DNA of 18,202 bases from a virus (lineage: Duplodnaviria > Heunggongvirae > Uroviricota > Caudoviricetes): positions 1-18,202 of the IMG/VR virus record IMGVR_UViG_2617270976_000013; one strand, 5' to 3'. The notes beneath the pieces are model-generated. The model saw nothing but the letters and a program-made list of their open reading frames with translations. It had not been told where the DNA came from and ran no database searches. Each line of letters opens with the position of its first letter. Position 1 is the first letter of the stretch. The position numbers and the translations under genes are program-made. Below are positions 1,369 through 13,626 of this stretch, one piece after another.

Positions 1369-1444
1369 GCCGATATAGCTCAGTTGGTAGAGCAGCGCAT
1401 TCGTAATGCGAAGGTCGTAGGTTCGACTCCTATTATCGGCACCA
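1369..1444 (+). tRNA. thrW: tRNA-Thr (anticodon CGU)
   Basis: 76-nt sequence GCCGATATAGCTCAGTTGGTAGAGCAGCGCATTCGTAATGCG...GGTTCGACTCCTATTATCGGCACCA with cloverleaf features, CGT anticodon in the loop and 3' CCA; located immediately after proA as in E. coli. Confidence 0.9.
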
Positions 1445-1458
1445 TTTAAATCAATAAG

Positions 1459-2622
1459 TTACACATCACTAGTACCTTCCTTATTTTTTGACTGGGACAA
1501 ATTTGGGACCGATGGGTTCAGGATCGAGTCTATTTGCCGTGCATGTTCGGTAAGGTGATTAGGTGCGAGGTGAGCATATCGACGAACCATTTCGATAGAC
1601 TCCCAGCCTCCCATTTCCTGTAACACTGACAACGGGACTCCGGCTTGAACCAGCCAACTTGCCCAGGTGTGTCTCAAGTCGTGAAATCTGAAATCATCAA
1701 TACCTGCTCGTCTCAGCGCCGCTTTCCAGGCTGTGTTTGCGTCATACCGCATCTTCCTGACCGTTGGCGCTTTCGTTCCGTCTGGTTTGGTACAGCTTTC
1801 CTTGTACACAAATACCCAACGGTGATGATTCCCGATTTGTTTTTTCAATACGCGACATGCAGTATCATTCAGCGCAACGCCAATTGCGCGGTTTGATTTA
1901 CTCTCTTCCGGGTTTATCCATGCCACCCGGCGCTGCATATCTATTTGTTGCCATTCAAGGTTGATGATGTTCGAGCGTCTTAAGCCTGTTGCCAGTGCAA
2001 ATTCAACAACAGACTTTAATGGCTCCGGACATTCATCAATCAGCCTTTGTGCTTCATGGGGCTCCAGCCAGCGGATCCGTTTATTCTTTGGTTGAGGCAC
2101 TTTAATAATTGGTGCCTTATCCAGCATTTTCCATTCACGCTCTGCGGCTCTTAGTAGGGCCTTTATAAATGAAAGATGCGTAGCCTTCGTTGCAACGGAC
2201 GCTGGTTTTGGCGTGTATTCTGGAACAGGTTTCCCTTTTTTTCTGCATGCTTCTGCCCTGAGTTTCCAGTTTTCCTCATGACGCCGGTTCGTCATTTTCT
2301 GCATTGCTGAATAAATTTTTGATTCAGTAATGTCTCTTAGTTGCATTCCTGCGAAATGTTGAAGCCAGAATCCGATCCGGCTTTTGTCATCGTCCAGTGA
2401 TTTTTTATGTGCTTTCTCTTCAAGCCACCTGACACACGCTTCCTCGAACGTTATATCAGGTATTTCACCAAGTTTGCTGACCCGCCATGCTTCAGCCTTT
2501 AGCTTGTCATGGAGTTCTGTCGCCTGCCTTTTGTCCTTTGTTCCAAGAGACTGTTTAAATCTTTTACCGTTCGGCAATGTGAAACTGGCGTACCATATTT
2601 CACCTCTGCGGAAGAGTGACAT
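1459..2622 (-). CDS. int: tyrosine site-specific integrase, P22-type
   Basis: 387-aa ORF with C-terminal catalytic motifs ([10 protein letters not shown] ... RRYAHL) typical of phage tyrosine recombinases; SD GAGGA upstream of the ATG at 2622; adjacent to the tRNA. Confidence 0.95.
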
Positions 2623-6058: not shown

Positions 6059-6355
6059 TTATACCTCTGAATCAATATCAAACTGGTGGTGAGCAATGGT
6101 TTCAACCATGTACCGGATGTGTTCTGCCATGCGCTCCTGAAACTCAACATCGTCATCAAACGCACGGGTAATGGCTTTTTTGCTGGCCCCGCAGCGTTGC
6201 AAATGATCGATACAGAGTGATTCAAACAGGTGCTGTGGAAGACCTTTTTCCATGTCGTCTGCCAGTTCTGCCTCTTTCTCTTCACGGGCGATCTGCTGGT
6301 AGTGACGTGCCCAGCTCTGAGCCTCAAGACGATCCTGAATGTAATAAGCGTTCAT
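6059..6355 (-). CDS. gam: RecBCD inhibitor Gam (short, GamS-like form)
   Basis: 98-aa product [47 protein letters not shown]... matches lambda Gam; SD AGGAG 8 nt upstream. The in-frame upstream extension has a stop and no ATG. Confidence 0.9.
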
Positions 6356-6431
6356 GGCTGAACTCCTGAAAATGGCTGTGAAAATATCGCCTGCGAAATG
6401 CCAGGCTGATTAGGAAAACAGGAAAGGGGGG

Positions 6432-6590
6432 TTAGTGATTCAGGCCGTTACCGCGTCCGTCGAGAAAAACTTCCACGAGCAAATCACGGGTATAAGTGCG
6501 CTCGATGCCGCGATGCAGATATAGCCGTCCGCGTAAATTAGCTGATGCAGTCCAGGTACCATCTTTGTGTTTGACCAGCATTCCTGGCAT
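6432..6590 (-). CDS. small ORF (52 aa) in the kil/cIII position, function unknown
   Basis: ATG at 6590 preceded by GAGGTG (5-nt spacer); product MPGMLVKHKDGTWTASANLRGRLYLHRGIERTYTRDLLVEVFLDGRGNGLNH; below the ORF track cutoff. Overlapping alternative ORFs exist in other frames. Confidence 0.35.
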   Translation of the reverse strand: MPGMLVKHKDGTWTASANLRGRLYLHRGIERTYTRDLLVEVFLDGRGNGLNH

Positions 6591-6899
6591 GACCGCACCT
6601 CAATTAACGGTCTGCATTCCGTAATGTTGATGAACCATAAAAACTCCTGCCCGTAAGCTGGGCTGCTGAACATATAGAGACTTCTGCGCGTATTCAGGCG
6701 GTGGATGGCCGCCGGTTGTCATAACTAAGCCGCCTCGTTGAAGCGACTGAGGTATGAAATGTTGAGTTAATTTCAGCTGGTCACACCGACGTTCACGCGT
6801 CCGTTTCACCCCTCGCACTCCCCGAAGCCTGCTGAAATTCAAACTGCGGATCTAAGCGGTCATCGCAACGGTGAATCAGGTAGTTGCCGTATCGTTGTG

Positions 6900-6990
6900 T
6901 TGTTGCGATGAACTTATTTAAAACTACAGTTGTTTTATCGTCAACAACAAAAGTTGTTTTATTGGTTGTTTTAGATATAACTGGTTGTAT
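6900..6990 (-). promoter_or_regulatory. putative leftward early promoter and operator array (pL/OL-like)
   Basis: Minus strand reads TTGACG, 17 nt, TTAAAT; overlapping repeats of TAAAACAAC/GTTGTTTT in direct and inverted orientation (plus strand agttgttttatcgtcaacaacaaaagttgttttattggttgtttta). Confidence 0.4.
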
Positions 6991-7085
6991 TTAGGATGGA
7001 TTTATTTTGTGACTTGAATCGCATAGCGATAACTGAAGCGAGGTTATGGTGGTTTTTTTAACGGTGTGTGTGATGAGGGGGGGGG

Positions 7086-7113
7086 CAAAAGAAAACCCGG
7101 CACGGTGACCGGG
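7086..7113 (-). terminator. putative intrinsic terminator downstream of the repressor gene (minus strand)
   Basis: GC stem cccgg (7096-7100) / ccggg (7109-7113) with an 8-nt loop; on the minus strand followed by TTTTCTTTT and then a C9 tract (plus-strand G9 at 7077-7085). Confidence 0.4.
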
Positions 7114-7234
7114 ATTCTTACGCCGTTAGGTAAAGATATTATTGCGGTGGCTTAATATTACTACCTAGAGCAAAGATAGGAATTAGTTCTTTACTGAATG
7201 AGCACAATGCCCAGTTGATAATTTTTAATTGGTA

Positions 7235-7924
7235 CTACCCATGCTTCCTATATGTCTGCGGCATGCTCCCAATAACCTTACCGAAGATGAACACCCGGTT
7301 CATCTCGTCTTTCTCGATCGGGTCCCACGGTGAGTAGCTTTTGTTATCAGAGATGACCAGCAGCTTATCCTTCATCATTTGCAGGCGCTTTACATGGGCT
7401 GTGTCGTCGTACAGAAACGCATAGATACCATCACCGTCGAAAGATTTAACTGTGATATCAACGAACAGCAGATCACCTGGTTCGATCGTTCCTGACATGC
7501 TGTCACCACGCACGTTAATGATGCGGATATTTTCCGCCTTCCTACCATCGAACATGTGACGAGCATCGTCAAACGAGTACTCAACCGAGCGTAGAACTTC
7601 TACAAACTCACGGTTGATGACTCCCGGCCCAGCACTGACTTCTATATCAAGAACGTCAATCTTGAAGTATTTGGAATGGCTGACAGTTGATTGTATTGGT
7701 TGCACTGTACTGTCTGACATATTTCCAACGCCAGAAGATAACCATTCTGCGCGCACACCCAAAGCGTTCGCGATCTCCACGATTTTAGTTGTTTGATTAG
7801 CTTTCCCTGTTTCGATTTTCTGAATAGCAGCCTGGCTAACCCCGACCAAATCCCCAAGCGCCTTTTGTGTAAGGCCTCGCGCTAATCTGGCTTCTTTAAG
7901 TCTTTCTGAGAGTGTTGTTTTCAT
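7235..7924 (-). CDS. cI: CI-like prophage repressor, HTH plus S24 (LexA-type) peptidase domain
   Basis: 229-aa product MKTTLSERLKEARLARGLTQKALGDLVGVSQAAIQKIETGK... with C-terminal GDSM and VKRL (Ser/Lys dyad context). Start chosen at ATG 7924 (not 7990) to leave a 105-bp operator region; no SD, consistent with a leaderless mRNA. Confidence 0.9.
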   Translation of the reverse strand: MKTTLSERLKEARLARGLTQKALGDLVGVSQAAIQKIETGKANQTTKIVEIANALGVRAEWLSSGVGNMSDSTVQPIQSTVSHSKYFKIDVLDIEVSAGPGVINREFVEVLRSVEYSFDDARHMFDGRKAENIRIINVRGDSMSGTIEPGDLLFVDITVKSFDGDGIYAFLYDDTAHVKRLQMMKDKLLVISDNKSYSPWDPIEKDEMNRVFIFGKVIGSMPQTYRKHG

Positions 7925-8028
7925 AGTCCAAATGTACAACCAAGGTTTTATTCCATCAAACGAAAATGGTTGTTGACTAAAAACAACCATGGTTTTAATC
8001 TTGATTCAAATTAACCACGGAGGTTGTT
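7925..8028. promoter_or_regulatory. divergent promoter/operator region (OR, pR, pRM-like)
   Basis: Three operator-like sites sharing AACCA/TGGTT half-sites (caaccaaggtttt, aaaatggttgttg, aaaacaaccatggtttt with perfect palindrome aaccatggtt). Rightward TTGACT (7973-7978) then TTTAAT; leftward TTGATG, 17 nt, TACATT ending about 7 nt before the repressor ATG. Confidence 0.55.
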
Positions 8029-8259
8029 ATGAACCCAGCTATCAAAACAGCGATCAATATCGTTGGTTCACAAAAGAAACTGGGCGCTGCTTGCGAAGTT
8101 TCACAGCAGGCCGTCTATAAGTGGCTTCACAACAAAGCAAAGGTATCCCCTGAACATGTCGGCAGCATTGTTACGGCTACTGGTGGAGTAGTGAAGGCAT
8201 ACCAGATTCGCCCGGATCTTCCGAAGTTGTTTCCACACACCGAAAAGAACGCAGCTTAA
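8029..8259 (+). CDS. cro: Cro-like HTH regulator (YdaS-like)
   Basis: 76-aa product MNPAIKTAINIVGSQKKLGAACEVSQQAVYKWLHNKAKVSPEH...; SD GGAGG 5 nt upstream; divergent from the repressor across the operator region. Confidence 0.85.
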   Translation: MNPAIKTAINIVGSQKKLGAACEVSQQAVYKWLHNKAKVSPEHVGSIVTATGGVVKAYQIRPDLPKLFPHTEKNAA

Positions 8260-8271
8260 ATTTCCATTTCA

Positions 8272-8284
8272 CGCTCTTTAACAA
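8272..8284 (+). promoter_or_regulatory. boxA-like element (nutR-equivalent position)
   Basis: CGCTCTTTAACAA, 12 nt after the cro stop, closely matching the boxA consensus (CGCTCTTTA / rrn TGCTCTTTAACAA); no convincing boxB hairpin follows. Confidence 0.5.
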
Positions 8285-8328
8285 TAAGCAATCAACTTAA
8301 CAGTCAATTCAAACTAAAGGAGTCAATT

Positions 8329-8868
8329 ATGCAACCACTTACATACCAACAGACTAGCGGATTTAGCCCGACTGCGGTGATAAATCGTTCTCAAACAAAA
8401 CAGGTGCCAGGCCACGAAAAGATCCGTGATGCCGTCCGCGCCTGGTCGGCTGTAGATAATCAGGATGTCGTTGCCACACTCATTGTGAATGAGTATCGGG
8501 AGCAGGGCGGCGGCACCATCGATTTCCCTGATGATGTCAGCCGTGCACGCCAGAAGCTGTTCCGCTTCCTCGATAACAAATTCGATTCTGAAAAATACCG
8601 AAATAACGTGCGTGAACTGACCCCGGCAATTCTGGCGGTACTACCGCTGGAATATCGCGGTTACCTGGTTGAGCAGGATAGCTTCATGGCTAGGTTGGCT
8701 GAAATGGAAAAGGAACTCAGTGAGGCAAAACAGGCTGTCATTCTCAACGCACCACGCCACCAGAAACTGAAGGAAATTAGTGAAGGTATTGTGTCGATGT
8801 TTCGTGTGGACCCAGATCTGGCTGGTCCATTGATGGCGATGGTTACTACCATGCTGGGGGCGATATGA
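8329..8868 (+). CDS. CII-position regulator, YdaT-family
   Basis: 179-aa product; segment ARQKLFRFLDNKFDSEKYRNNVRELTPAILAVLP resembles Rac YdaT ARNTQKIFRWVEKDTPDAVEKMQALLPAIEKSMP; strong SD AAGGAG; follows cro as cII does in lambda. Confidence 0.7.
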   Translation: MQPLTYQQTSGFSPTAVINRSQTKQVPGHEKIRDAVRAWSAVDNQDVVATLIVNEYREQGGGTIDFPDDVSRARQKLFRFLDNKFDSEKYRNNVRELTPAILAVLPLEYRGYLVEQDSFMARLAEMEKELSEAKQAVILNAPRHQKLKEISEGIVSMFRVDPDLAGPLMAMVTTMLGAI

Positions 8869-8954
8869 CAGGTTCAGAAATGGCGAAAGCCGGTCTGCTG
8901 GAACAGAACCGACTTTCAGGTGCAAACCGTAACACACTCATTGCGGGAGGAATT

Positions 8955-9560
8955 ATGGCAAACACTGCTGAGATATTCAATTTTCCAGTGCCGGATGTGG
9001 CACAAAAGGAGCCGCGCGTGGCAGATCTCGATGATGGTTATACGCGCATTGCAAATGAGTTGCTGGAAGCTGTGATGCTGGCCGGATTAACACAGCACCA
9101 GCTTCTGGTCTTCCTGGCTGTCATGCGCAAAACATATGGCTTTAATAAAAAACTGGATTGGGTGAGCAACGAGCAACTTTCCGAGTTGACCGGGATATTG
9201 CCGCACAAGTGTTCTGCTGCAAAAAGTGTTCTGGTAAAGCGTGGGATTTTTATTCAGAGCGGGCGGAATATCGGCATTAATAATGTGGTCAGTGAATGGT
9301 CAACATTACCCGAATCAGGTAAGAAAAATAAAGTTTACCTGAAAGAGGTAAATTTACCTGAATCAGGTAAGAAAAGTTTACCCAAATCAGGTAAAGACGT
9401 TTACCCGAATCAGGTAAACACAAAAGACAAACTAACAAAAGACAATATAAAACCTTTTTCGTCCGAGAATTTTGGCGAATCCTCTGACCAGCCAGAAAAC
9501 GATCTTCCTGTGGTGAAACCGGATGCTGCAATTCAGAGCGGCAGCAAGTGGGGGATCTGA
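8955..9560 (+). CDS. O: replication initiator, lambda O-like (N-terminal origin-binding domain)
   Basis: 201-aa product; VADLDDGYTRIANELLEA...LAVMRKTYGFNKK matches lambda O (VADLDDGYARLSNMLLEA...LRKTYGWNK); SD GGGAGG upstream of ATG 8955; contains iterons. Shorter than lambda O. Confidence 0.85.
   Translation: MANTAEIFNFPVPDVAQKEPRVADLDDGYTRIANELLEAVMLAGLTQHQLLVFLAVMRKTYGFNKKLDWVSNEQLSELTGILPHKCSAAKSVLVKRGIFIQSGRNIGINNVVSEWSTLPESGKKNKVYLKEVNLPESGKKSLPKSGKDVYPNQVNTKDKLTKDNIKPFSSENFGESSDQPENDLPVVKPDAAIQSGSKWGI
9306..9418. repeat. origin iterons (ori) inside the O gene
   Basis: Four to five copies of about 18 bp TTTACCYRAATCAGGTAA (starts near 9306, 9333 degenerate, 9353, 9377, 9400), each internally palindromic (ACCTGA-a-TCAGGT), followed by an AT-rich stretch (9418-9462). 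Confidence 0.7.
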
Positions 9561-9609
9561 ATGGAGCGTTAATGATGCAGCGGATATCATCAGGTGCCTA
9601 GTACGGGTG

Positions 9610-9861
9610 ATGGAGATCATCAAGCAGGATAGCCAGCAGAAAGAAGGTAATCAGGCATTAATGTTGAAACAGTACTTTGTTAATCTGCTAATAATGGAAC
9701 TGTACGAGGAAGTTCATAACGGTGATGCGGCTGATTCTGTTTTTAAAAGTACGGAACCTACACAAGTACTTGATAACTTATGGAGCAAATGGCAGGAGGC
9801 TATAGCTATTTTTGATATTTGGAATTACCCAGTTGCGACTGAGGAAGACTTGGCAGACTAA
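9610..9861 (+). CDS. hypothetical protein (84 aa) in the position normally occupied by a helicase loader
   Basis: ORF from ATG 9610 (MEIIKQDSQQKEGNQALMLKQYFVNLLIMELYEE...); no similarity to lambda P or DnaC recognised; start uncertain. Confidence 0.4.
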   Translation: MEIIKQDSQQKEGNQALMLKQYFVNLLIMELYEEVHNGDAADSVFKSTEPTQVLDNLWSKWQEAIAIFDIWNYPVATEEDLAD

Positions 9862-10055
9862 TTTTCAGCACATTTGATTTCCAATAATCAACCAGCCATA
9901 ATCATGCCATTGGAGCCTGAACAACTCCGGTGACTTCTGCGCTAAACGGGGACGTTTATGCGCACATACAATCCAACCTATCTTCTCCATTCACAGATGC
10001 AGAAATGCACCTGCGTTTTTTTGCATCCAACGTTTGACCTCTGCGGAGGTGAAGC

Positions 10056-10511
10056 GTGAACCTCCCACAAGACGGTATCAAATTGCATCGCGGTAACTTC
10101 ACCGCTATCGGTCAGCAGATCCAGTCTTATCTGGAGGACGGCAAATGCTTTCGCATGGTGCTTAAACCGTGGCGCGAAAGACGCAGTCTTTCCCAGAATG
10201 CACTCAGCCACATGTGGTACAGCGAAATCAGCGAGTACCTCATCAGCAGGGGGAAAACGTTCGCTACTGCAGTATGGGTAAAAGATGCACTCAAACACAC
10301 ATACCTCGGTTATGAAACCAAGGACTTGGTTGATGTCGTAACCGGCGAAATCACTACTATCCAGTCGTTACGCCATACCTCCGATCTTGATACCGGAGAG
10401 ATGTATGTCTTCCTGTGTAAGGTTGAAGCCTGGGCGATGAATATTGGCTGCCACCTGACTATTCCGCAGAGCTGCGAGTTCCAGCTGCTGCGCGACAAGC
10501 AGGAGGCGTAA
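10056..10511 (+). CDS. ninB: NinB/Orf-family recombination protein (YbcN-like)
   Basis: 151-aa product with [17 protein letters not shown] motif (lambda NinB RSLDQNRKLWACLGDVS); GTG start with GGAGG 6 nt upstream. Confidence 0.85.
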
Positions 10512-10681
10512 TGGCTACACCGCTTATTCGGGTCATGAACGGACACATCTACAGAGTACCAAATCGTCGTAAGCGTAAACCGGAGCTGAAGCCTTCCGAA
10601 ATACCAACACTGCTCGGATATACCGCCAGCCTGGTTGATAAAAAATGGTTGCGACTGGCAGCAAGGAGGAATCATGGCTGA
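10511..10681 (+). CDS. ninE: NinE-like small protein
   Basis: 56-aa product [56 protein letters not shown]; SD AGGAGG; TAATG overlap with ninB; below the ORF track cutoff. Confidence 0.65.
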   Translation: MATPLIRVMNGHIYRVPNRRKRKPELKPSEIPTLLGYTASLVDKKWLRLAARRNHG

Positions 10682-10964
10682 TTTGAGAAAAGCAGCGCGT
10701 AGTCGGGAATGCCAGGTAAGAATCCCTGGCGTATGTAATGGCAACCCTGAAACGTCTGTACTGGCACATATCCGGCTGACTGGATTGTGCGGCACCGGTA
10801 CCAAACCGCCAGACCTGATTGCCACCATTGCATGTTCTGCCTGCCACGACGAAATCGACCGCCGCACACATTTTGTCGATGCTGCATATGCAAAAGAATG
10901 CGCGCTGGAAGGTATGGCGAGAACACAGGTTATCTGGCTGAAAGAGGGGGTTATTAAGGCGTGA
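10674..10964 (+). CDS. YbcO-like cysteine-rich protein (DUF1364-type)
   Basis: 96-aa product [34 protein letters not shown]...[11 protein letters not shown] with conserved Cys/His; SD AGGAGGA; same order (ninB-like, ninE, ybcO, rusA) as in the DLP12 prophage. Confidence 0.75.
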
Positions 10965-11323
10965 ATACCTACAGCATCACATTACCCTGGCCTCCGAGCA
11001 ATAATCGCTATTACCGCCATAATCGCGGGCGCACGCACGTCAGCGCAGAGGGGCAGGCATACCGCGATAACGTCGCCCGAATCATTAAAAACGCAATGCT
11101 GGATATCGGCCTGGCTATGCCTGTGAAAATCCGCATTGAGTGCCACATGCCGGATCGCCGTCGCCGTGACCTGGATAATCTGCAAAAAGCCGCTTTTGAC
11201 GCACTCACTAAAGCAGGTTTCTGGCTGGATGATGCTCAGGTCGTTGATTACCGTGTTGTGAAGATGCCTGTTACCAAAGGTGGGAGGCTGGAACTGACCA
11301 TCACCGAAATGGGGAATGAATGA
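10961..11323 (+). CDS. rusA: Holliday junction resolvase RusA
   Basis: 120-aa product [74 protein letters not shown]... closely matches E. coli RusA; GTGA overlap with the upstream gene. Confidence 0.9.
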
Positions 11324-11460
11324 TGTTTGAGTTTTATATGGCAGAACTTCTTCGCCACCGCTGGGGGCATCTGCGCTTATATCGTTTCCCCGGTTCTGTT
11401 TTGACCGATTACCGAATACTGAAGAATTACGCCAAAACCCTGACAGGAGCAGGAGTATGA
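11320..11460 (+). CDS. ylcG: YlcG-like small protein
   Basis: 46-aa product [46 protein letters not shown]; ATGA overlap with the rusA stop. Confidence 0.65.
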
Positions 11461-11545
11461 AGCCAGAGATAACAATCAACTAATACTGTTTTATTGATTT
11501 TTGCTTGTAATTGGCGTTCTGGTCTGATTTTTGTGGAGTAAGTTG

Positions 11546-11929
11546 ATGCGTGATATTCAGATGGTTCTTGAGCGTTGGGGAGCGTGGGCGGCTAATAATC
11601 ATGAAGATGTGACCTGGTCGTCCATTGCCGCCGGTTTTAAGGGATTAATTCCTTCAAAAGTAAAATCTCGCCCGCAATGTTGTGACGATGACGCGATAAT
11701 CATTTGCGGGTGCATGGCCCGTCTGAAAAAGAACAACAGCGATTTGCACGATTTATTAGTAGATTATTATGTAGTCGGTATGACATTCATGTCACTGGCA
11801 GGTAAGCATTGCTGCTCTGATGGTTATATCGGGAAAAGGTTACAGAAGGCTGAGGGTATAATTGAAGGGATGTTAATGGCATTAGATATCCGGTTAGAGA
11901 TGGATATCGTTGTTAATAACTCTAATTAA
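11546..11929 (+). CDS. late-gene antitermination protein Q (QuuD-like)
   Basis: 127-aa product [60 protein letters not shown]... with the Cys cluster of Q-family antiterminators; SD GGAG upstream. Confidence 0.9.
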
Positions 11930-11941
11930 TATGCCAATTGT

Positions 11942-11970
11942 TTACTAAAAATTATTAAAAATGGGGCGTT
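11942..11970 (-). terminator. putative intrinsic terminator for the porin gene (minus strand)
   Basis: Stem ggggcg / cgcccc with loop ttgaga (11953-11970); on the minus strand followed by ATTTTTAATAAT. Confidence 0.45.
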
Positions 11971-12117: not shown

Positions 12118-13200
12118 TTAGAACTGGTAAACCATACCTACAGCAACGATATCATCGGTAGCAACGCCAGATGCTTTCGTGAAATCGCTCTTATCAATCA
12201 GGTTGATTTTGTAATCAACAAAAGTGGACATATTTTTGTTGAAGTAATAGGTTGCACCTACATCAATATATTCAACCAGGTCCTGATCACCCCACGCACC
12301 CAAGTCTTTTCCTTTAGATTGCAGGTAAGCAACGGACGGACGCAGACCGAAGTCGAACTGATATTGTGCAACTACTTCGAAGTTTTGTGCTTTGTTGGCA
12401 ATATGGTTATTACCAAAAACAGTCATGTTCTGGGTTTCAGAATAGGTGGTAGCCAGATAGATGTTGTTCGCATCATATTTCAGACCAGCTGCCCATACTT
12501 CAGCATTTTGACCAGATGCATTCAGGCTGTTGTTACCGTAGATAACCTGATTATTAGTGCGGTCAGATTTAGCATAGGTTGCACCTACACCGAATCCTTC
12601 ATACTCATAAGTAGTGGAGAAACCGAAACCATCACCATTAGCTTCAGTTACGTCAGTGCGGTCATTTTTACCCTGATACTGAGCAGCAAAGTTCAGACCA
12701 TCAACCAGACCAAAGAAGTCATTGTTACGATAAGTTGCAACACCTGTGGTGCGACCAGTCATGAATACATCTGTTTGGGTCCAGGTATCGCCACCGAATT
12801 CTGGCAGAACGTCGGTCCATGCACCAATATCGTATGCTACACCGTAGTTACGGCCATAATCGATGGAGCCGTAGTCACCGAATTTCAGGCCAGCGAAGGC
12901 AAGACGGGTTTTATCTTTGGAGGAACCTTGAGATTCAGCGCGGTTGCCTTTGAATTCATATTCCCACTGACCGAAACCAGTCAGTTGATCGTTGATTTGG
13001 GTTTCACCTTTGAAGCCAAGACGGGCATAAGTAGTATCACCATCATCTGCATCATTAGAGGAGAAGTAGTGCTTAGCATTAACTTTCCCGTACAGATCCA
13101 GCTTGTTACTGTCTTTATTATAAATTTCAGCTGCCTGAGCAGACATCGCCATCAGTACTGATGCAGTTACAGCAGAAATTGCCACTGTTAATTTTTTCAT
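12118..13200 (-). CDS. OmpC/NmpC-family outer-membrane porin (prophage moron)
   Basis: 360-aa product with signal peptide [23 protein letters not shown], Gly/Tyr/Asn-rich beta-barrel composition and C-terminal F (..VGMVYQF); lies between Q and the lysis genes in opposite orientation, as nmpC does in DLP12. Confidence 0.9.
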
Positions 13201-13626
13201 CGTGAGCCCTTTTTTTGAACTATTATTAAAAAATGATGTCACTGCGCGATAAATATTCATCTAATCAATGTGATTATTTCAAGATGTAAGTTTTGGTTTC
13301 TCATTTGATTTGTGAAGTAGATCTCTATTTTTATCTGAACTTTTTCTATCGAATCCTATTCATGGCTCTTGGCTGAATAAAAATAAATCTATTAGCCAAT
13401 TTATATTAATGGCTGTTATTTATAAGTGCTCTATAATTTGAAGGTTCAATTTAAATCGGCTAAAAATAACGCTGGAAATTATTTGTTGGTTATTTGTTGA
13501 GATTTGCTTATGTATTTGTAGTGGTGTTTTCAATACTCGGTAGCATTCTCGCAAATATCATTTAGTGGTTTACGTACGTAAAAAATTGGTTATGCTGTTA
13601 AGAGTGGTTACTTCGTCACACAGCTT

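Follow-up and report, generated by a model that had tools for sequence, protein, structure and literature searches.

boxA is the textbook RNA component of the N-nut sites of lambdoid phages and of rrn leaders, and the put mechanism is independent of boxA. To our knowledge, only a few boxA elements that are carried on mRNAs and served by host factors alone have come to light, namely those of suhB, a ParE-like toxin gene and CRISPR leaders. The consensus GYTCTTTAANA has been derived experimentally for gamma-proteobacterial boxA (PMC5725501), and a lone boxA is enough for Nus-dependent effects in vivo (PMC7665894; PMC5725501). It guards CRISPR arrays from Rho (PMC7665894), and at suhB and the ParE-like toxin gene it represses translation, with ensuing Rho termination (PMC5725501). 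Here we describe a consensus boxA in a phage early operon that has no N, boxB or nutL, from a prophage family that about 1,500 of 5,426 complete E. coli genomes carry. We favor the interpretation, to which we would give a probability of about 55%, that this site is an orphan boxA, the remnant of a boxA-hairpin element at the nutR position, which would retain an accessory anti-Rho role served by host factors only.

The window (the whole stretch of DNA analyzed, 18,202 nucleotides) is a lambdoid prophage of the DLP12/PhiR34_1-like type located at tRNA-Thr(CGT), and thus a member of the DLP12/PhiR34_1/Bievrevirus-like lambdoids, which are very common E. coli prophages (Table 1). Its closest sequenced phage is PhiR34_1 (99.5% over 6400-8900), an intact version of DLP12, and the same immunity region is present in PhiR5_1, PhiR47_2, PhiR26_1, IdasGreatGrand and Turner. 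The segment from cro through the spacer to ydaT was found in 1524 of the 5426 complete E. coli genomes (~28%), with an identity of at least 99% in 1378. The cro product matches Pfam YdaS_toxin (4.1e-17) and the PHROG 35 transcriptional repressors (1.5e-27), and its counterpart in PhiR34_1 is annotated Cro; the role of YdaT as a cII analogue is taken from published work (PMC9986795 and PMC8630535). The rightward promoter was placed by reading the sequence, by its location between the divergent cI and cro genes and by a related motif at pL; because it fell below threshold in a consensus promoter scan, we treat it as putative.

The prophage is replication-defective, in that 330 nt (9556-9885) replace about 5.4 kb of PhiR34_1; the O C-terminus, P, ren, the emrE-like gene, ybcK, ybcL and ybcM are lost, and O is cut to 231 aa. 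The kil gene is a pseudogene here, with TGA at codon 13 (6602-6600) where 4A7, PhiR68_2, ETEC1706 and ECOD1 have CGA or CGC, and a 52-aa ORF (6432-6590, minus strand) is its C-terminal remainder. A 380-aa ORF (12118-13260, minus strand) between Q and the lysis genes occupies the position of the OmpD/NmpC-type porin moron in PhiR34_1 and DLP12.

Table 1. Features of the prophage that bear on the boxA site (window coordinates).
Feature	Coordinates	Strand	Remarks
tRNA-Thr(CGT)	1369-1444		site of the prophage
Integrase gene	1459-2622	-	first in minus-strand order
Genes after integrase		-	in minus-strand order: TraR/DksA-like gene, then exo, bet, gam, kil, pL
kil	6432-6638	-	start AGGAG-N6-ATG at 6638
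pL and its leader (~270 nt)	6639..6944	-	no boxA, N gene or put RNA
pL promoter	TTGACG 6944-6939, TTAAAT 6921-6916	-	read from sequence
Terminator of repressor transcript	7113-7096	-	between pL and cI-like gene
cI-like S24/LexA-type repressor	7235-7927	-	Pfam Peptidase_S24 and HTH_3, PHROG 4; same immunity module as cro
Putative pR	7973..8001	+	TTGACT-17 nt-TAATCT, with AAAACAAC/GTTGTT operator repeats; would transcribe boxA
cro analogue, YdaS family	8029-8259	+	stop TAA 8257-8259
cro-ydaT spacer, 69 nt	8260..8328	+	part of immunity module; unstructured, 15 C, 6 G
boxA CGCTCTTTAACAA	8272-8284	+	would be read as RNA on the pR transcript
Putative deletion scar	8297..8305	+	lone TTAACAG repeat 8297-8303; 3' arm CAGTC 8301-8305
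ydaT Shine-Dalgarno (SD) and start	AAGGAG 8317-8322, ATG 8329-8331	+
ydaT, YdaT-type cII analogue	8329-8868	+	first gene 3' of boxA; Pfam YdaT_toxin 8.5e-30; PHROG 163 CII-like activator 3.9e-67
Genes after ydaT		+	in plus-strand order: O-like gene, ninB, ninE, rusA, Q, porin moron, lysis genes
Q	11531-11929	+

The first-pass annotation of this DNA had called a near-consensus rrn-type boxA directly after cro, at the place where lambda has nutR, with no recognizable boxB, and both parts of that call were upheld. The 13-mer CGCTCTTTAACAA is the sole exact match in the 18.2-kb window on either strand, and an exact match arose in none of 200 dinucleotide-preserving shuffles. Matches with one to three mismatches occur in the window at the level expected by chance, and a second boxA is therefore absent. 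The site starts 12 nt past the cro stop and is separated by 44 nt (8285-8328) from the ydaT ATG, which places a consensus boxA on the early transcript at the nutR position, inside the cro-ydaT operon and downstream of the putative pR. Its core, GCTCTTTAACA (8273-8283, plus strand), is a perfect sense-strand fit to GYTCTTTAANA. Compared with the E. coli rrn boxA (UGCUCUUUAACAA), the window boxA deviates at position 1 only, where it has C as in lambda. An rrn-type BoxA binds NusB-NusE more tightly than the lambda BoxA does, and phage 21 uses the rrn sequence (PMC3177189); judged by its sequence, the window boxA is of this high-affinity rrn/imm21 type and not of the weaker lambda type.

Folding agreed with the earlier impression that no boxB accompanies this boxA. 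No boxB hairpin was found in the 44 nt before the ydaT ATG (8285-8328), which have a minimum free energy (MFE) of -3.7 kcal/mol (z = -0.36 against shuffles), and the RNA of the larger region 8255-8345 likewise folds as its shuffles do (MFE -4.1 kcal/mol, z = -0.01). The cro-ydaT spacer contains no inverted repeat, and a boxB in the rrn order, 5' of boxA, was not apparent as a significant hairpin (z = -1.3).

We also searched for the protein partner and the leftward counterpart of a nut site. No member of an N family was recovered when all plausible ORFs of the pL operon were compared with PHROG and Pfam, the matches being to kil, gam, bet, exo, the TraR-like protein and others, and tblastn was negative with each of five N queries (those of lambda and phi80 and three new N-like ones). 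There is no nutL, in that 6600-7000 holds no boxA at three or fewer mismatches on either strand. The one ORF that had been proposed as an N-like partner, an arginine-rich reading frame of 80 aa (TTG 6842 to 6600, "GVKRTRERR"), has a TTG start, no ribosome-binding site and no family match, is in frame and continuous with kil, and contains an in-frame TAG in the plaque-forming phage PhiR68_2. From its sequence, we conclude that it is not a gene but the kil frame running open upstream of its start, where it is not translated. The suggestion of NusB/NusE-dependent processive antitermination with an "atypical or absent" N-boxB partner is thus upheld in part: the partner is absent and not atypical, and antitermination itself is a putative role.

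These results bear directly on the possibility of a canonical N-nut site, with a boxB and an N that went unrecognized or with N supplied by a co-resident prophage. The position and the boxA sequence are exactly nutR-like, and homologous cro modules elsewhere do possess N and nutL. However, no stem-loop precedes the ydaT start, the searches for N, nutL and a conserved ORF with an arginine-rich motif (ARM) came back empty, and N acting in trans would still require a boxB, and we therefore give this explanation almost no credence. Because N, nutL and boxB are all missing, the site cannot work as an N-nut site of the lambda type. It is an orphan boxA, which lacks three of the four features that define a lambda-type nut site.

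N-less lambdoids can carry another kind of antitermination signal, as exemplified by HK639, which has a related YdaS-type cro and uses a put-like RNA. We built a covariance model for put RNA (R1) from HK022 putL and putR and HK639 putL, whose features are a two-stem fold and the conserved string GAACGG...GUCGG...GGCGGG..AGGA..CAAU. Known put RNAs score 70-103 bits with this model, whereas the best matches in the window reach at most 11.6 bits (E >= 0.17) and lie outside both early leaders; in 4A7 and PhiR34_1, two relatives, the same model gave no match in either early leader (pL or pR). A search of the whole window at Rfam gathering thresholds returned tRNA only, and an E-value search of 6300-8500 gave chance-level matches only and nothing for either leader. 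The Nus-dependent phages of the mEpimmI type are unrelated and carry their own N-like protein, Gp17.

The pL leader has noteworthy features of its own. It spans about 270 nt (6640-6908, minus strand) and is common, from about +1, to phages of differing immunity. Within it are a 5' hairpin (UCAUCGCAAC...GUUGCGAUGA) and a long stem (AAUUUCAGC...GCUGAAAUU), in which one-sided G-U/G-C changes preserve pairing; the structure is not put RNA and has no Rfam match. Because two decent intrinsic terminators follow exo in the pL operon of PhiR34_1, a leftward antitermination device may reside in this leader. An element of about 60 nt (6690-6765, minus strand), which ends ATG ACA ACC GGC GGC CAT CCA CCG (MTTGGHPPP...), is conserved 5' of kil in the window's phage family, in phi80 (just after N/tL1A), HK225 and HK639 and in Enterobacter/Salmonella phages (copies at 1485-1580 of L005, 2485-2580 of L007 and 280-375 of L006). 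Either a polyproline leader ORF or the true start of kil could be located here.

Comparison of the spacer among copies of the window's immunity type revealed two main alleles. One, of 69 nt, is that of the window and is present in 110-115 of 120 IMG/VR copies, in about 1463 of 1515 E. coli genomes (~97%) and in all six isolated phages. The other, of 81 nt, occurs in five of the 120 IMG/VR copies and in about 47-52 of the 1515 genomes (~3%), in prophages with the same N-less gene order. It reads CAAC-TTAACAG-ACTGA-TTAACAG-TCAATT and is predicted by folding to form a hairpin, GACUG-AUUAA-CAGUC, 18 nt past boxA. The 12 additional nt, which are bounded by a 7-nt direct repeat, do not duplicate adjacent sequence in tandem, and deletion in the 69-nt allele is therefore the parsimonious direction of change. 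Most parsimoniously, the 69-nt allele arose by a 12-nt slippage deletion between the TTAACAG repeats that removed the 5' arm of the hairpin.

More distant loci suggest where this hairpin came from. Among 11 cro homologues from other genera (63-86% amino-acid identity), five are followed by a consensus boxA 7-24 nt past the stop and then by a stem-loop. In three of those five loci, a boxA-hairpin is also present leftward (nutL), and the ORF after it has an arginine-rich, N-like N terminus, for example MCNFHGYDNARCRRHERRSAKRAAY.... From these arrangements, we conclude that the boxA after cro in the window's lineage was ancestrally part of real nut sites. We also examined 80 diverse YdaT loci from IMG/VR, of which 74 have no upstream boxA and typically have a 30-nt spacer, as do phi80, HK639 and 4A7. 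The remaining six have boxA followed about 20 nt on by GGCUGA-N4-UCAGCC, and boxA without the hairpin was seen in none of the 80. The hairpin of the 81-nt allele aligns with GGCUGA-AUUA-UCAGCC in this element, with a compensatory change from G-C to A-U at the second pair.

A pattern scan recovered 53 further contigs with the boxA-hairpin element, for which we found no description in the literature searched. The gene downstream is either of the YdaT type (MQSLTY/MHSLAY) or of another cII type (MENTTT/MESSTT), and boxA with GGCUGA-N4-UCAGCC 19 to 21 nt further on is present once per locus (IMG/VR contigs L307-L359, and L231, L241, L279, L281, L288 and L306). The hairpins carry 12 different tetraloops (GUAA, AUUA, UUCG, UUCU and others). 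Moreover, 19 of 40 boxA-hairpin loci have upstream a phi80-like nutL hairpin, CACG-UAAA-CGUG, that is unlike the one after cro. Given the variety of loops and this dissimilarity, the post-cro hairpin has the look of a generic stem-loop and not of a boxB specific for N. The search for N in these phages, by tblastn with the five N queries and by an ARM heuristic, pointed neither way. In phi80 itself, N and nutL are annotated, yet the cro-cII spacer is 30 nt long with neither boxA nor nutR (2641-2672 of L225); the short spacer of HK639 lies at 3084-3114 of L003, and most YdaT-type phages are alike in this respect.

Family members whose immunity modules differ from that of the window (4A7, PhiR68_2, Perceval and 1W) have the pL leader in common with it from about +1, and they share its right operon from the ydaT ATG onward, with the boundary exactly there (window 8328). 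Between cro and ydaT they have 30 nt and no boxA, and in 4A7 no boxA was found over some 4 kb to either side of the junction of these two genes; phi80 and HK639 are likewise without a boxA after cro. Because the sister phages have the same operon without the element, this comparison of gene orders indicates that expression of the ydaT-O-P-ren-moron-nin-Q operon does not need boxA. Among the 120 IMG/VR copies of the window's own immunity type, the 13 nt of boxA show one variant (A9G) and the other 56 nt of the spacer about five events, so that boxA is no more conserved than its flanks, in a comparison of very low power (six haplotypes in 120 copies). The A9G variant is CGCTCTTTGACAA, in a spacer that is otherwise identical (L183 / L082, IMGVR_UViG_2636415418_000001). 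The case for function that would have come from conservation of the 13-mer among related prophages is weakened on both counts, by the absence of boxA from sister immunity modules and by the lack of any sign of constraint beyond that of the flanks.

The same observations raise the possibility that boxA is a pure relic, an inert leftover of a nutR-like element that persists since the immunity module is young and nearly clonal. The near-identity of the module across E. coli genomes noted above, a boxA as polymorphic as its flanks, sister phages wholly without boxA and a phage without N are all as this explanation would have it. Loss of the hairpin partner in about 97% of copies, including all six isolated phages, with retention of plaque formation, fits decay of the whole element. 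Nevertheless, a perfect boxA on a nascent E. coli transcript would be expected to recruit NusB/S10/SuhB regardless of its history, a heterologous Citrobacter consensus boxA is active in E. coli (PMC5725501), and the wide distribution of boxA-hairpin relatives suggests function. We consider complete inertness to be unlikely, although it has a good deal in its favor.

The 13-mer and its spacer might alternatively act as DNA, as part of a leftward pRE analogue or of a YdaT operator, and not as an RNA signal. In CP-933P, YdaT protects about 95 bp that extend from the end of ydaS into the first part of ydaT, a region with a pRE-like promoter (PMC9986795, PMC8630535). Here, the spacer has AATCAA/AGTCAA-like half-sites and a direct repeat of AGTCAATT, and the reverse complement of boxA starts with TTGTTA, which resembles a -35 hexamer. 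However, homology with phages of other immunity begins only at 8328, a mosaic boundary, and near-identical YdaT proteins (98.9% over the shared start) coexist with wholly different cro ends and spacers, so that a common YdaT target cannot lie in the spacer. The spacer also has neither an inverted repeat nor a minus-strand promoter-like site, the window's YdaT is too diverged from that of CP-933P for the operator to be transferred (no PDB match by sequence), and the 13/13 match to boxA and the boxA of cro homologues in other genera would be left unexplained. A DNA-level role is accordingly very improbable.

Under the explanation that we favor, an ancestral element composed of boxA, about 20 nt and a short GC hairpin would have traveled with the YdaS-type cro immunity module, and the deletion between TTAACAG direct repeats would have taken the 5' arm of its hairpin in the window's lineage. 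With the hairpin deleted and N absent, host Nus factors are the only route by which boxA could act, if it acts at all. The window boxA should bind NusB/S10, and when pR is active, the nascent boxA RNA would be bound by host NusB-S10; NusA, NusG and SuhB could then modify RNA polymerase without any phage protein, as they do at rrn and at Salmonella CRISPR leaders. The most probable effect would be to counter Rho loading at a tR1-like position, and Rho polarity further along the moron-rich early-right operon might possibly be countered as well. Any such effect would be accessory and not essential. A host-only, non-essential anti-Rho role is thus our best guess.

An effect on Rho seems the most likely one because boxA lies within a rut-like stretch, the analogue of lambda rutA/boxA-rutB. 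The 78 nt from 8233 to 8310 contain 22 C and 7 G and have an MFE of -2.0; among the ten top C-over-G windows listed for 7990-11950, this stretch has the second-highest excess of C over G and is the least structured. By position, the spacer aligns with lambda rutA/boxA and rutB, with boxB missing. The RNA is thus C-rich, G-poor and unstructured as in a rut region, but only 69 nt of it are untranslated. In PhiR34_1, the pR operon has no convincing intrinsic terminator from cro to Q but several 200-nt gaps among AT-rich morons, and a device that acts only on Rho would therefore be adequate. Note that the short untranslated gap counts against the favored interpretation, as do the absence of a lone boxA from the 80 YdaT loci and ydaT translation from a strong SD, which would itself limit Rho. 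On mRNAs, moreover, Nus complexes can favor Rho termination instead of preventing it (PMC5725501).

In another explanation, modeled on suhB, boxA-bound NusB/S10, looped to RNA polymerase, would hinder ribosome loading at the ydaT SD 33 nt downstream. The consequences would be less cII analogue, Rho polarity into ydaT-O and a lysis-lysogeny decision tied to host Nus levels or growth rate. With 44 nt to the ydaT start, the site falls within the published search criterion, a perfect match to GYTCTTTAANA no more than 50 bp before a start codon, and suhB was still repressed when insertions of up to 100 nt moved boxA and the SD apart; repression of the same kind acts on a ParE-like toxin gene, and lambda N is repressed from nutL (PMC5725501). 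The boxA core is also complementary to the SD, GCUCUUU (8273-8279) to AAAGGAG (8316-8322), as boxA itself resembles the anti-SD sequence. The pairing so predicted is weak, however, and belongs to a -4 kcal/mol fold no better than those of shuffles. The site is, furthermore, intercistronic after the translated cro gene and not in a 5' UTR, the same ydaT is regulated without boxA in sister phages, and the E. coli rows examined in the published boxA list (Baniulyte 2017, Supplementary Data) include P22-like cI/cII nut matches and none for this locus or 44-45 nt before a ydaT gene. We judge translational repression of ydaT to be unlikely, although it is, with inertness, one of the two alternatives to be taken seriously.

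A broader proposal, which we offer only tentatively and think rather doubtful, would unite the boxA that stands alone here with the boxA and generic tetraloop hairpin of its relatives as a site at which Nus/SuhB would load, without any phage protein, onto the early-right RNA of YdaT-type lambdoids that are N-less or phi80-like. If true, this would amount to natural antitermination of the rrn/CRISPR style, or to Nus-dependent tuning of the cII analogue, on an mRNA, and would operate in a prophage family of about 28% of complete E. coli genomes. The question is directly testable, as natural alleles with boxA and hairpin, with boxA only and with neither exist in plaque-forming phages. If boxA is active, N would not be required for a lambdoid phage to exploit the host Nus machinery, and the locus would provide a natural system for the effect of boxA alone on a translated mRNA, with Rho either prevented or promoted. 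If it is inactive, the locus documents how a nut site decays step by step once N is lost and cautions against inferring N-type regulation from boxA matches.

Among known systems, nutR/tR1 of lambda (rutA-boxA, boxB, rutB) and the nut sites of P22 and phage 21 resemble the window in having boxA a few nucleotides past the cro stop, on the pR transcript and before the gene in the cII position. Lambda nutR/tR1 shares in addition the embedding of boxA in C-rich, unstructured, rut-like RNA, and imm21 the same rrn-type boxA sequence (PMC3177189). In contrast to lambda, the window has no boxB, N gene or nutL, and its spacer is 69 nt as opposed to 118 nt. The put systems of HK022 and HK639 also belong to N-less lambdoids, and HK639 has a related YdaS-type cro, but the window and its relatives have no detectable put-like RNA. 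Closest in sequence and position is the boxA-~20 nt-GGCUGA-N4-UCAGCC element, which is homologous to the site and whose hairpin the 81-nt allele keeps at the same spacing, whereas the allele of the window has lost the 5' arm through the 12-nt deletion.

The rrn leaders with their Nus-SuhB complex and the Salmonella CRISPR boxA are alike in combining a consensus boxA with host factors only, and Rho is the expected target (PMC7665894). Those boxA elements precede long untranslated RNAs, whereas that of the window lies between two translated genes and, unlike rrn, has neither an upstream boxB nor a downstream boxC. The 5'-UTR boxA elements of suhB and CKO_00699 share with it a perfect GYTCTTTAANA within 50 nt of the start of a protein-coding gene (PMC5725501); the window boxA differs from them in being intercistronic and in preceding a phage cII analogue. 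Taken together, these comparisons suggest that the window boxA would have its closest functional parallels in the rrn, CRISPR and suhB boxA elements, which depend on host factors only.
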